This document shows, one piece after another, positions 45,254 to 55,751 of a stretch of DNA of 64,000 nucleotides. Position 1 is the first letter of the stretch; each line of letters opens with the position of its first letter. Position numbers and translations under genes: made by a program. The notes beneath the pieces are model-generated. The model searched no databases and was not told the origin of the DNA. It worked only from the letters and a program-made list of their open reading frames with translations. Source of the DNA: Bacteroidota bacterium (GTDB lineage Bacteria; Bacteroidota; Bacteroidia; JAHEXY01); assembly GCA_023251875.1 (NCBI GenBank), contig JAHEXY010000004.1, forward strand, positions 130,359 to 194,358, read 5' to 3'.

Positions 45254-45310
45254 ATATTTTATTTTTTACAGTTAAATATTTTTACCTCTTAATTTATCCG
45301 CGCTTCTATT

Positions 45311-45558
45311 TTGCTCAGCCAATGTCATTTTTTAAGCCCGAAAGGGCTTGAATTTTAATAACCTCTAGTGCAACTAGAGGAGAAATAAACTATTTTTTTA
45401 CAACCCTGAAAGGGTTGAATGCACTAGAAATTAAACCCTTTCAGGGTTACACTAATCTTGACTTACTTCCCCCAATTTTATTGGGGGTTATTAAAATTCA
45501 AGTCCTTCGGACTTTTTTTCCTCAGCATGGCAACACTCAAAACAGGCTGAGTCGAAGG
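45311..45558. repeat. Hairpin-rich ~250-bp repeat element (paralogue of 54292-54565)
   Basis: Shares GCTCAGC...ATGTC(A/G)TTTTTTAAGCC(C/T)GAAAGG(G)CTT and a terminal GGCTGAGTCGAAGG with the 54.3-kb element; internal stem-loops AAGCCCGAAAGGGCTT, CCTCTAGTGCAACTAGAGG, AACCCTGAAAGGGTT, ACCCTTTCAGGGT, CCCCCAATTTTATTGGGGG, AGTCCTTCGGACT. Confidence 0.6.
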
Positions 45559-52331: not shown

Positions 52332-54239
52332 TTAAATAGTTTCCGGCAAGGTATACTTTCTTCCTTTATTCTGCTCTTTTAAATATTGCATAAGCGGTGC
52401 AAAATAATCCATAATGGCTTTAGCACTCATTTCAGAACCTAATTCATCTTTTAAAACCAATCTCCAATCTTTAGAAGCTCCTGTACTCATTACTTCTTTT
52501 AAAAAGTTTCCAATTTCTTTGTTGCCGTAATAATTGGTTGAATGCGGATCTTGATGTAAAATATCTTTTGCGATGTGCTCATGAAATTGAAAAAGCAACA
52601 CATTAGCAATAGCATAATCATAATACTGTGCAGGATCATCATTAATATGTGTTTTAGAAGCTGCATCACAAAATTCTTCACCTCTTGTTGATGGAGGAAC
52701 AATACCTTGGTATTTTAATGCTAATTCCCACCATTTTTTGTTATACTGATCTACAGGTAAATTTTGTGCATATAAATTGTATTCGAACTCCGTCATAACA
52801 CCTGCAGCCCATGGAAGAACAACAACATAACTCAAAGCTTCTTTTAAAAGTTTTTGTGTATCATCTGTTTTTGTATTGGGATCTATTAATCCAAAATTGG
52901 CTAAGAAAGGTTTTTGCATAGAGGCTAATCCCATCATGGTTCCGAAAGCTTCATGAAAACCACGATTAGCGCCTTCTCTTAAAATAATAGGTACTTGTGG
53001 TGTTGAATAAGAACGGTAGTAATAAATATGTCCTAATTCATGTAGTGCAGTTTCCCACCAACGAGAATTAGCTTCAATGCTCATTAATGAACGTATATCA
53101 TCATCATGATTAATATGCCAAGCCGAAGCATGGTTATTTTTTTTGTAGCCTGCATCAAGCGGAGCGGGATACAAACTTGATTTTTCCCAGAAAGATTTTG
53201 GTAATGAATCAAAACCTAGGCTTACATAAAAACCTTCTGATTGTTTAATAATCCACTCCGGAGTTTTTTCTTTTAAAGCAGAATCAACGTTTAATCCCTT
53301 TACATCAACCAAATCATCCCATGATTGCCCCCAGCGATTAGGTAGCCAATGCGCAGGAAGCATATCCGGTACAGGTTGCTTGTATTTATTTGCCAATTCA
53401 TATCGGGCCCAGGTATGCAATTCACGAAAAAGCGGCCAAATGTCTTTTACCATATCATGGCAAACGTTCATCATTTCATCAGTAGTCATATTATAATCAG
53501 AAACCTGATACGAGAAAAAATCTTTATAACCCAATGCTTGCACCGACTGGTTTCTCAATTGTTGCAAATTTGCAAGCCCCGGTTTTAAACCTACGCCCAC
53601 TTCTTTACTGGCTTCCCAAGCTTTTAATCTTTCATTTAAATTATTAGATGCACCAAGAATAGAATCAATTTGGTTTACACTTACAGATTTGCCATCAATT
53701 TTAAAATCGTAACCAAATAGTTTTTCTGTTTGCTCATTATTGGCTTTAATAAGAGATTTTATTACGTCTTTTATGGTTTCAGGTCCACCGGCTGCAGAAT
53801 ACAAAACAGCATTGAGTTGACGAACCTCTATATCACTCAACTCATCTTTATGTTTTAAATATTCCGTTGCTTTATTAATATTATAGGCACTTCCACTAAA
53901 ATGATTATAAGCTTCACTTGCTACTTGAGCATTGTGTTTGGCAACAGTATCTCCTTCAACAATATGTGTATTCAATGCCCAATCTGCTTCTGATGATGCA
54001 TTGAGCAATTGTTTCATGGTATCATTATAAGCAACTAGATATTGATCTACTTCTTCTTTAATACTTTTTTGTTGGGTAGATGTTCCGCAAGCTGCAAATA
54101 AACAAATAGAGCTTAGAATTAAATAGTTTTTAAAATGCATACTATAAATTTTATGGTTAGAAATAAGAATGCAAAAGTAGGGAAAAGAGATGAAGCTTGA
54201 AAGGAGTATGAGAATATGAAAATCCGTTTTGCTAATCAA
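52332..54239 (-). CDS. M2-family (angiotensin-converting-enzyme-like) peptidyl-dipeptidase with signal peptide
   Basis: HELGHIYYY...LREGANRGFHEAFGTMMGL parallels the ACE zinc-binding HEMGHIQYY...LRRGANPGFHEAIGDVLAL region. Confidence 0.8.
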   Translation of the reverse strand: MISKTDFHILILLSSFISFPYFCILISNHKIYSMHFKNYLILSSICLFAACGTSTQQKSIKEEVDQYLVAYNDTMKQLLNASSEADWALNTHIVEGDTVAKHNAQVASEAYNHFSGSAYNINKATEYLKHKDELSDIEVRQLNAVLYSAAGGPETIKDVIKSLIKANNEQTEKLFGYDFKIDGKSVSVNQIDSILGASNNLNERLKAWEASKEVGVGLKPGLANLQQLRNQSVQALGYKDFFSYQVSDYNMTTDEMMNVCHDMVKDIWPLFRELHTWARYELANKYKQPVPDMLPAHWLPNRWGQSWDDLVDVKGLNVDSALKEKTPEWIIKQSEGFYVSLGFDSLPKSFWEKSSLYPAPLDAGYKKNNHASAWHINHDDDIRSLMSIEANSRWWETALHELGHIYYYRSYSTPQVPIILREGANRGFHEAFGTMMGLASMQKPFLANFGLIDPNTKTDDTQKLLKEALSYVVVLPWAAGVMTEFEYNLYAQNLPVDQYNKKWWELALKYQGIVPPSTRGEEFCDAASKTHINDDPAQYYDYAIANVLLFQFHEHIAKDILHQDPHSTNYYGNKEIGNFLKEVMSTGASKDWRLVLKDELGSEMSAKAIMDYFAPLMQYLKEQNKGRKYTLPETI

Positions 54240-54291
54240 ACCTCTACGAGCAATGTCATTAAGTTAAGGAGAAAATTAAGCCAACGCGCAT

Positions 54292-54565
54292 GCTTCGACT
54301 TCGCTCAGCACGACCTTTGCTCGGCTGTCATGCTGAGCGAACTATGTCGTTTTTTAAGCCTGAAAGGCTTTAATATCAATAGCCTCCGATTTTATCGGAG
54401 GTAAGAGTTTGATTGTTGATTATTGAACCCCTACGGGGTTCAACTGATTTGTTTGCATTTCCCCCTGATTTCATCAGAGGTTATTCAAATTTAATCCCTT
54501 CGGGATTGGGTGAACAACAAAGCATTACTCCTTAAAAAACGACATTGGCTGAGCGAAGTCGAAGC
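54292..54565. repeat. 274-bp hairpin-rich element bounded by perfect 18-bp inverted repeats (MITE-like or structured RNA)
   Basis: GCTTCGACTTCGCTCAGC (54292-54309) and its exact reverse complement (54548-54565); nested GTCGTTTTTT / AAAAAACGAC; internal stem-loops AAGCCTGAAAGGCTT, CCTCCGATTTTATCGGAGG, GAACCCCTACGGGGTTC, ATCCCTTCGGGAT. Confidence 0.65.
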
Positions 54566-54942
54566 GTCCAAAAAAAATCCTTTTGGTACCTTAAATAATG
54601 ACATTACTCTACGAGGTATGAATACGAACGGCCTTGCGTTTCTACAATACTATATGCCCTACAGGCAATTAATTAAAAATACGACATAGGCGTTAAAGTT
54701 TTGTAGAAGGCTATAGGTTGGGCATTAACACTTCCCGTAGCAATTTCTGTAGCGGCTGTTGTAATAAAACTTTACCATCATAAAGATATTATTGCAGATT
54801 TTAAAATATTTGCCATTCCAATCTTAATTGGAATTTGTTTAGCCGTACCATTAATGTATGTTACCTACAGAAACTTATATGAAAAAAACATGGATGAAGT
54901 AAAATCTATGTTAGAAGATTTAAAAGAATAATATTACAAAAT

Positions 54943-55103
54943 GGCTTCGGGAGCCTCAGCCATCGATGTAATTGGCAACTGAGGCTCTCGAAGTCACAAA
55001 AAACAAATCCTTCAAAGTTTAAAAAACCTTGAAGGATTTTTATAGAACTTGGCTTCGAGAACCTCAGCCAACATATACAAGGGTGCCTGAGGTTCCCGAA
55101 GGC
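54943..55103. repeat. Two paralogous ~52-nt hairpins separated by a perfect terminator-like hairpin
   Basis: Unit 1 54943-54994 and unit 2 55051-55103 (GGCTTCG(G/A)GA(G/A)CCTCAGCC ... CTGAGG(C/T)TC(T/C)CGAAG), with a G-C to A-T compensatory change in the stem; middle hairpin AAATCCTTCAAAGTTTAAAAAACCTTGAAGGATTT (55005-55039). Confidence 0.6.
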
Positions 55104-55112
55104 ACAACTAGA

Positions 55113-55751
55113 TTAATGTTTTCCGTTACCATTCATTTTCATACCCGCATTTACCAAAGCCATTTCAGGCTTATAACGTAAATGCGTTACTGATTTATAT
55201 TGTTTGCCTGTACTAGTAAAAGTGCGAAGTTCTTTTTGTGTTTCTTTATCCACAAATTTCATAATGGGTTGAGCAACCGTTTCTGATTTTAAAATAATTT
55301 TCTTTAGTTTTTTATCCCAGTCTTTATAATACGTATCAAAATCAGTTATACGTAAACGTTTACGGCAATTTTCATATCCGCAAGAAAGATCCATTTCATA
55401 TTCAACATTAAACAAACCGTATTCATCGGTAATTTGTTCTCCCGGAAAAATATCTCGGGTGGCAATTTCAAAACCATAGCCGGTACTCATGGTATTGCAA
55501 TTGCAGCAGTGATTTACATATTTAGCAATATCCCAACTAATGATTCGGTTTCCTTTATCATCAATAAAAGAATATTTGTCAATGATTTCTCGGTAATTGT
55601 TATCCAGAATAAGATAATTATCGGGTGAGATACTCACCTCTAATTGATCTTTTACATATACTATTGTTCCTTCAGGTATTAGATTGGTGGCGAAAACTCC
55701 GTATCCAACTGTGGAGTTCACCCATCGCAGTTCAGTGTCTGGATGTATCAT
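55113..55751 (-). CDS. SET-domain protein (putative protein-lysine methyltransferase)
   Basis: SET signature motifs YVNHCCNCN (NHxCxPN-like) and EQITDEYG (ELxxDYG-like), followed by a Cys-rich post-SET segment CGYENCRKRL. Confidence 0.7.
   Translation of the reverse strand: MIHPDTELRWVNSTVGYGVFATNLIPEGTIVYVKDQLEVSISPDNYLILDNNYREIIDKYSFIDDKGNRIISWDIAKYVNHCCNCNTMSTGYGFEIATRDIFPGEQITDEYGLFNVEYEMDLSCGYENCRKRLRITDFDTYYKDWDKKLKKIILKSETVAQPIMKFVDKETQKELRTFTSTGKQYKSVTHLRYKPEMALVNAGMKMNGNGKH

Follow-up and report, generated by a model that had tools for sequence, protein, structure and literature searches.

Two 52-nt hairpins beside a SET-domain protein gene of a Bacteroidota bacterium are two partly decayed hairpin doublets, passive insertions around a pre-existing terminator in the 64,000-nt stretch of DNA that we analysed (the window). 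What was described as one 52-nt hairpin is in each case a doublet, in which two ~23-nt hairpins stand in opposite orientation on either side of a short spacer. The same hairpins recur in other contigs, where they bracket a small gene for a GIY-YIG domain protein. We consider it probable that the doublets are non-autonomous DNA repeats of the REP/REPIN kind with this nuclease as their partner enzyme; both the action of the nuclease on the hairpins and the manner of their spread are what we infer from these comparisons. The preliminary description had proposed a REP or small-RNA element, of which the REP-like neighbourhood was right, while a small RNA found no Rfam match.

Two hairpin doublets flank the terminator of a SET gene

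The doublets occupy part of an intergenic gap of about 870 nt; the genes on either side, both on the minus strand, encode a SET-domain protein and a peptidase M2 (Table 1). The window is AT-rich (about 32% G+C), and the true start of the peptidase M2 gene is probably further downstream than that of the ORF listed. The arm sequences quoted for both units in the preliminary description are present at the positions in Table 1, and the 19-mer GGCTTCGRGARCCTCAGCC gave four matches at ≤3 mismatches in the window, with 0.00 expected and none in 100 shuffles. Short inverted repeats bracket the four 15-mers, and all four fit the family motif with at most one change (a G at position 6, rare in the family and present in H1). 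All four hairpins have 4-bp closing stems, one only via G.U pairs: the lower stem of H2 (GUGA/UUGC on the minus strand) needs two such pairs to form, and H2 is therefore the most decayed of the four. The window holds only these four 15-mer hairpins. Units 2 and 1 flank the SET gene terminator, one on either side, and H4 ends 8 nt past the SET stop codon and thus lies within the 3' untranslated region of that gene.

Table 1. Positions of the doublets and surrounding features in the window; the 15-mers of H1 to H4 are written in a common sense
Feature	Position	Strand	Description
Peptidase M2 gene	52332..54239	-	635-aa ORF
MITE-like multi-hairpin element	54292..54565		274 nt; perfect 18-bp terminal inverted repeats GCTTCGACTTCGCTCAGC
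Hairpin H1 (left half of unit 1)	54941..54963	+	ATGG - CTTCGGGAGCCTCAG - CCAT
Unit 1 arms	54945-54959 with 54979-54993		CTTCGGGAGCCTCAG pairs with CTGAGGCTCTCGAAG
Hairpin H2 (right half of unit 1)	54975..54997	-	GTGA - CTTCGAGAGCCTCAG - TTGC
SET gene intrinsic terminator	54998..55039	-	stem 55005-55020 / 55024-55039, 16 bp, 3-nt loop; tract GTTTTTTG at 55004-54998 (minus strand)
Hairpin H3 (left half of unit 2)	55049..55071	+	TTGG - CTTCGAGAACCTCAG - CCAA
Unit 2 arms	55053-55067 with 55087-55101		CTTCGAGAACCTCAG pairs with CTGAGGTTCCCGAAG
Hairpin H4 (right half of unit 2)	55083..55105	-	GTGC - CTTCGGGAACCTCAG - GCAC
SET-domain protein gene	55113..55751	-	212 aa

The hairpin between the units had been described as perfect, which does not hold for the plus strand (15/16 pairs, one A.C) and holds for the minus strand, with 16/16 pairs including one G.U, followed by GUUUUUUG. 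A terminator scan accepted only this central hairpin in the region, and the two units, which have no U-tract, failed the criteria for intrinsic terminators.

Orthologous sites were located through homologues of the SET protein from Bacteroidota. Behind the SET gene of the closest informative relative (L266, 87% identical protein), the stop codon is followed by 26 nt and then by AATCCTTTAAGGGTT-CAAAA-AACCTTGAAGGATT-TTTT, a homologous terminator without doublets, indicating that the terminator is ancestral and stands outside the repeat. In a second relative (L267, 79% identical) the peptidase M2 gene follows 35 nt after the SET gene, compared with about 870 nt in the window, and a third (L268, 83% identical) carries only a decayed copy of unit 1. 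Two close contigs (L001 and L002) were 99.9-100% identical to the window and hence uninformative for this comparison. Judged from these sites, unit 2 inserted between the SET stop codon and the terminator, and unit 1 directly past the terminator on its far side. The 0.9-kb gap without genes consists of repeat debris that has built up. A single composite MITE made of unit 1, terminator and unit 2 was rejected, as the terminator occurs alone in L266 and unit 1 alone, in decayed form, in L268.

Within the 274-nt element in the same gap lie five or six small hairpins whose loops are of the GAAA, UACG and UUCG types. The element folds at -116 kcal/mol (z = -9.9), and a diverged second copy occupies 45303-45540. 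The signature that the units were said to share with these two elements (54292 and 45311) was borne out, in that a variant 16-mer, CTTCGACTTCGCTCAG, stands at their ends. Further partial inverted repeats occur within 54240-54930 (for example, 54233-54261 with 54596-54624), an interval in which no ORF of 60 aa or more was found and which looks like more repeat debris.

Conserved pairing resides in short stems around each 15-mer

The units had been put forward as under selection for a 15-bp stem because the pair at position 9 changes from G-C in unit 1 to A-T in unit 2. The pairs are as described; as evidence for a selected 15-bp stem they fail. At position 6, unit 1 has G.T and unit 2 the mismatch A.C when each folds on itself; G-C and A-T result only when unit 1 pairs with unit 2. 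Across the four arms, positions 6 and 9 occur in all four combinations (GG, AG, AA and GA), so that there is no net covariation within the window. Over all 181 nt, the minimum free energy fold pairs unit 1 with unit 2 in a single long hairpin, at -84.5 kcal/mol on the plus strand and -85.0 on the minus strand (z about -11), compared with a sum of -74.9 kcal/mol for three separate hairpins.

Larger samples gave the same answer for position 9. Among 107 distinct doublets of the window type (AGARC), the two arms read GG in 47, GA in 23, AG in 31 and AA in 6, with a Fisher odds ratio of 0.40 (p = 0.07) and a direction opposite to covariation; among 119 distinct doublets of a sister type (ACARG), the counts were AA 34, AG 16, GA 35 and GG 27 (odds ratio 1.6, p = 0.24). 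Position 9 thus combines freely from arm to arm, indicating that the 15-bp helix is not selected for pairing there, and the proposed compensatory change does not survive as a sign of selection on that helix. In several contigs the loop bases of one arm differ throughout from those of the other, as in L192 and L015 with AGTGC against AGAAC. Position 9 is a free R/R polymorphism in the predicted apical triloop of each small hairpin. The helix noted earlier comes about because each 15-mer of a doublet is the reverse complement of the other, which also allows pairing between the two; this arm-to-arm pairing is a by-product of the inverted arrangement and not the conserved feature.

The unit hairpin consists of a variable lower stem of 4-7 bp, which depends on lineage and closes the conserved 15-mer CTTCGAGARCCTCAG. 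Within the 15-mer, ViennaRNA predicted the pairs C1-G15 and U2-A14, a UC bulge, the pairs G5-C13, A6-U12 and G7-C11, and the triloop A8-R9-C10. The flanking bases are complementary (for example, GTTGC-[15-mer]-GCAAC ... GGTGG-[15-mer']-CCACC), with at least 4 contiguous flanking pairs at 241/419 15-mers against 29/419 when partners were shuffled, and pairing of spacer ends or outer flanks reached 4 bp in only 1-7%. We then scored a 7-bp flanking helix in an ungapped alignment of 143 distinct single hairpins from other contigs. Paired cells amounted to 65.9%, compared with 42.6% in shuffles, and the covariation score of the flanking stem was 0.538 against 0.188 in shuffles (reached by 0/500) and 0.13-0.19 in slid controls. 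The two innermost pairs were standard in 126/143 and 125/143 hairpins, with CG, GC, AU and UA all common. Covariation across further copies, which had been suggested as a check, is accordingly strong in the short flanking stems and missing from the 15-bp arm-to-arm helix, and the claim of selection on secondary structure holds for the former only.

Variation inside the 15-mer, tallied over 165 copies outside the pattern match by which copies were ascertained, fits the predicted small hairpin. Changes at the predicted loop positions 8, 9 and 10 numbered 28, 49 and 17, variation at position 6 was A to G with a G.U pair retained, and among transitions at paired positions 34 kept a wobble and 11 made an A.C mismatch. 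For the window itself, forced local folds of the lower stems gave -0.9 to +2.5 kcal/mol for the stem alone; with 4-bp stems and such weak local folds, the arm-to-arm helix would dominate as RNA.

These data bear on the reading of the units as structured RNAs, either a small RNA or a cis-regulatory element, selected for the 15-bp stem. Their folds are very stable (z about -10 to -12), each unit shows compensation at position 9 and unit 2 sits in a 3' untranslated region, all of which such a reading would explain. However, in the window that helix is interrupted at position 6, position 9 does not covary between arms in either set of distinct doublets, copies elsewhere lie inside ORFs, in arrays and in either orientation to genes, and the orthologous site of the closest relative has no doublets. 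At the gathering threshold, Rfam matched nothing but tRNAs in the window and 18 related loci, and at E = 10 the window gave only microRNA-precursor models, generic long-hairpin models that scored far below their cut-offs. We regard a selected RNA of this kind as highly improbable. No tRNA or tmRNA was found at the site, and a hammerhead or other ribozyme reading of CUGAGG...CGAAG was rejected on a misfitting core, and no ribozyme model gave a score. As a stem-loop of the SET 3' untranslated region (-25 to -29 kcal/mol), unit 2 may incidentally stabilise the mRNA.

Doublets are dispersed across phyla as multiplying units

With a broad pattern in which only CTTCG...CTCAG and its complement were fixed, we recovered at least 120 loci from public one-genome-per-species contigs. 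The dominant core among the matches listed was CTTCGACARGCTCAG, on contigs labelled Actinomycetota, Alphaproteobacteria, Chloroflexota, Bacteroidota and others, and the AGARC core of the window was a minority among them. A pattern based on the window core, which left positions 6 and 9 of either arm unconstrained, gave at least 120 loci and at least 126 doublets in metagenomes, on contigs of 27-70% G+C. A core of 15-16 nt, CTTCG-N5/6-CTCAG, is conserved across phyla, and by contig labels the family ranges over Bacteroidota, Alphaproteobacteria, Cyanobacteria, Planctomycetota, Spirochaetota, Chloroflexota and Actinomycetota. The fetched loci contain hundreds of copies with hairpins of about 23-29 nt, and the "+-" arrangement was present in 79 loci. 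Within a contig, as in L148, L165, L225 and L239, the two lower stems of a doublet differ from each other yet stay constant from copy to copy, indicating that the doublet is the unit that multiplies.

Searches for the doublet in mobile replicons gave 0 doublets among 2.9 million viral contigs and no blastn match of a consensus doublet to plasmids, for which the query was probably too short. Among the fetched loci, we found no filled-versus-empty pair differing by one doublet only, the single match of the junction search being a difference in array length. Mobility of the doublets is suggested by their dispersal together with the more distant orthologous comparison at the SET gene.

Placement was examined for 89 isolated doublets from contigs whose G+C content did not exceed 55%. 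Of these, 72 lay outside any ORF of at least 100 aa, and 17/89 fell within ORFs of 100-1469 aa by crude ORF calls (e.g., L128, L175 and L179), which suggests in-frame insertions in protein genes; further loci with doublets in ORFs include L186, L167, L200 and L214. The non-ORF doublets have the 3' end of a gene next to them in 67 instances and a 5' end in 47, at median distances of 43 nt and 118 nt, respectively, and where genes stood on both sides the spacer was convergent in 9 cases, tandem in 30 and divergent in 3 (3/42). The clustering at convergent gene ends that had been put forward for checking was thus not seen; copies are not especially convergent, and instead keep near 3' ends and avoid divergent (promoter) spacers. 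No target-site duplication was detected at the borders of 71 isolated doublets, where direct repeats of ≥3 nt numbered 9 against 8.6 in shuffled sequence and those of ≥4 nt 3 against 2.3. Origin as a classical MITE, a derivative of a DDE transposon, was rejected on this match to shuffled expectation.

This placement also raises the possibility that the hairpins are host-beneficial 3'-end elements, acting as terminators or mRNA stabilisers, and that their association with a GIY-YIG gene (described below) is secondary. Some REPs have become extra terminators or mRNA stabilisers. A position 43 nt (median) past stop codons and away from divergent promoter spacers would suit such a role, as would the nearly constant sense orientation of the first hairpin after the GIY-YIG gene, and the 34 to 11 preference for wobble-compatible changes on the sense strand fits a single-stranded form that could be RNA. 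Purifying selection against harmful insertions would, however, leave the same 3'-end placement, and the 17 doublets inside long ORFs and one in-frame insert in an hsdS gene are at odds with a 3'-end function. In the window, moreover, the units lack a U-tract, the scan calls the central hairpin only and the SET gene is already served by a conserved terminator of its own. We therefore judge a host-beneficial function to be unlikely as an account of the family, and favour repeats that spread with a nuclease.

A small GIY-YIG nuclease gene is bracketed by the hairpins

Between hairpin arrays, a small ORF encodes a GIY-YIG domain protein of about 95-113 aa, which matched Pfam PF01541 at E = 5e-16 to 5e-18 and has the UPF0213 proteins BH0048 (1zg2) and EF2693 (1ywl) as its closest solved structures. 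Tyr, Tyr, Gly, Thr, Arg, His, Glu and Lys are invariant in these proteins, many of which end in a C-terminal LPxLAxAYRD motif. By tblastn, the gene was found in 19 hairpin-selected loci, 15 of them within 0.53 Mb of metagenome loci. At 18/19 of these the gene has hairpins no more than about 145 nt away, with 12 loci having them on both sides, and the hairpins occur singly, as pairs or, often, as arrays.

We also ran the test in reverse, starting from six homologues in the protein database that were chosen regardless of their DNA (from Maribacter, Empedobacter, Chryseobacterium, Kuenenia, Salinivirgaceae and one metagenome protein). Hairpins stood just upstream in 6/6 loci, and 5/6 had in addition a hairpin 6-14 nt after the C-terminal ...AYRD... 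motif; this 3' hairpin is CGGTGG-CTTCGAG[AT]GCCTCAG-CCACCG, directly past the coding sequence. In these loci of 20 kb, hairpins are roughly 20-fold denser in the 600 nt around the gene than in the remainder. The association extends to variants of the motif, since the homologue of Sphingomonas parapaucimobilis (L255) is bracketed by the 16-mer CTTCGACTTCGCTCAG known from the ends of the 54292 element, and that of Planktothrix by CTTCGTTTCACTCAG, both being variants of CTTCG-N5/6-CTCAG. At the homologues of Methylobacterium, Sinorhizobium, Novosphingobium and Shinella, the flanking hairpins are of other types, particular to the lineage. Flanking repeats were absent at the UPF0213 homologues of B. 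subtilis (yazA), Salinivibrio, Cupriavidus and Legionella, so the hairpin association belongs to part of the UPF0213 family only. The 64-kb window itself contains no GIY-YIG homologue, and the partnership is known from other loci and not from the source organism.

Several further features of these loci were recorded. In three loci of Rhizobiales and Sphingomonadales (L254, L256 and L257), the bracketing hairpins are of another kind, with centres that share a CTTGWC / GWCAAG core (for example, CCTCGGGCTTGACCCGAGG and CCCCGTGCTTGACACGGGG) and resemble the middle of the CTGAGCTTGTCGAAG type. The cassette of GIY-YIG gene and hairpins is often located between the hsdM, hsdS and hsdR genes of type I restriction-modification operons, and elsewhere adjoins other defence genes such as MmeI, DISARM drmA and GmrSD (L243, L244/L245, L246, L247, L132, L260 and L250). 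An hsdS gene of Empedobacter (L244, 9150-9270) carries an in-frame insert of hairpin elements (...DASSASASVNEETSETERSRSLPEGDALSLPK...) within the linker that joins its two target-recognition domains; the sister strain (L245) has a short linker, and the two hsdS genes differ in their variable domains too. Many database GIY-YIG proteins owe a length of 130-250 aa solely to an ORF that reads into the downstream hairpin array and yields repeats such as PEALEGN or ASRASATGASEPEV (L015, L124, L132, L149, L237 and L239; P0006 and P0057), and these tails are probably annotation artefacts.

Genes for Y1 transposases (PF01797) share restriction-modification operons with the cassette in three loci (L243, 12649-13101; L247, 7418-8344; L132). 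CTTCG...CTCAG hairpins do not flank these PF01797 genes, and a Y1 transposase was rejected as the partner on position, since it is not the hairpin-bracketed gene there.

A different relation between gene and hairpins would be that the GIY-YIG gene is a homing-type parasite, which inserts into pre-existing hairpins that spread by other means or are host elements. GIY-YIG homing endonucleases are an established class and IS elements target REPs, and in two loci (L140 and L168) the gene splits a doublet (A - gene - a), as an insertion would; the frequent lodging of the cassette in defence islands and type I restriction-modification operons is likewise in keeping with a parasite. Against this, no other candidate enzyme recurs beside the hairpins, the Y1 genes of L243 and L247 being unbracketed, the type of hairpin changes with the lineage of the protein, and the 20-fold enrichment around the gene is what REPs show around RAYT genes. 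A parasitic GIY-YIG gene thus appears quite improbable to us, and the nuclease as partner of the repeats remains the preferred reading.

Proposed mechanism and implications

Under the preferred reading, "home" loci are those in which small (~95-113 aa) UPF0213/YhbQ-type GIY-YIG genes are bracketed by the same hairpins, often as arrays. The nuclease would recognise upper stem, bulge and loop, the conserved part of the hairpin, in DNA that is single-stranded or extruded, and would nick it there; replication or repair might then copy the element. Copying of this kind could give rise to local arrays and to dispersed copies without target-site duplication.

Taken further, a large clade of small UPF0213-type GIY-YIG nucleases and the bulged hairpin doublets could form a second, undescribed REP-RAYT-like partnership, in which a nuclease of a different fold maintains or spreads the repeats; we put this forward tentatively, at somewhat less than even confidence. 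If the partnership is real, REP-like repeats are not exclusive to Y1 transposases, and a second, unrelated nuclease fold would have evolved such a lifestyle too. It would also explain spurious "hypothetical proteins" of many genomes as translated hairpins and as GIY-YIG ORFs that read into arrays (...ASRASATGASEPEV...), give the uncharacterised UPF0213 family a testable function, and offer tool builders a nuclease of roughly 100 aa with a sequence- and structure-specific hairpin target. For annotation of the window, the two hairpins count as inserted repeats on either side of a genuine terminator, with no small-RNA gene.

We found no paper on the element or on a link between GIY-YIG/UPF0213 proteins and repeats in a literature search that covered subscription journals thinly, so an earlier description is possible. 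The only mention found was one paper in which Caulobacter has three small COG2827 genes whose role is not known. The hairpin family and its GIY-YIG partner deserve dedicated study.

Comparison with known systems

Several classes of palindromic element share single traits with the doublets. Rickettsia palindromic elements (RPE) are likewise small palindromic repeats able to sit in frame in protein genes, and the 274-nt element at 54292 resembles a classical MITE in its terminal inverted repeats; unlike RPE and classical MITEs, the doublets combine the lack of target-site duplication with a wider taxonomic range and an associated nuclease gene. The subterminal hairpins of IS200/IS605 elements and of their miniature derivatives (PATEs) are likewise imperfect hairpins with extrahelical bases, presumably recognised as single strands, and leave no target-site duplication. 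Their enzymes are of another class, the gene here has only about 100 codons, and we identified no IS-like left and right ends with a cleavage tetranucleotide.

On the enzyme side, the GIY-YIG homing endonucleases (I-TevI and the Seg proteins) and the Slx1/UPF0213 nucleases have the same catalytic fold and residues as the hairpin-associated proteins. Slx1-type enzymes cut branched or stem-loop DNA, and homing enzymes spread their own gene via break repair. The proteins described here differ from both in having no separate DNA-binding domain, and from homing endonucleases in being accompanied by dispersed non-coding copies of the flanking hairpins, which to our knowledge have not been reported for that class.

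The closest parallel is with REP/REPIN-RAYT systems. Like those repeats, which are 20-40 nt long, the hairpins are short imperfect palindromes in many copies, mostly extragenic; they form inverted doublets that are copied as one, gather on both sides of a small, apparently low-copy gene, leave no target-site duplication and are placed near gene 3' ends. The two systems differ in several respects. REP/REPIN hairpins carry a GTAG or CGTC tag, which was absent from the alignment of 143 hairpins here, where the flanks instead follow CGNTNN / NNANCG. REP sequences are species-specific, whereas here the upper stem, bulge and loop are conserved across phyla and the lower stem is variable, and the two hairpins of a doublet, in contrast to those of a REPIN, usually have different lower stems. 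Finally, the bracketed gene encodes a Y1 HUH transposase (PF01797) in REP/REPIN-RAYT systems and a PF01541 GIY-YIG protein of the UPF0213 type in the loci described here.
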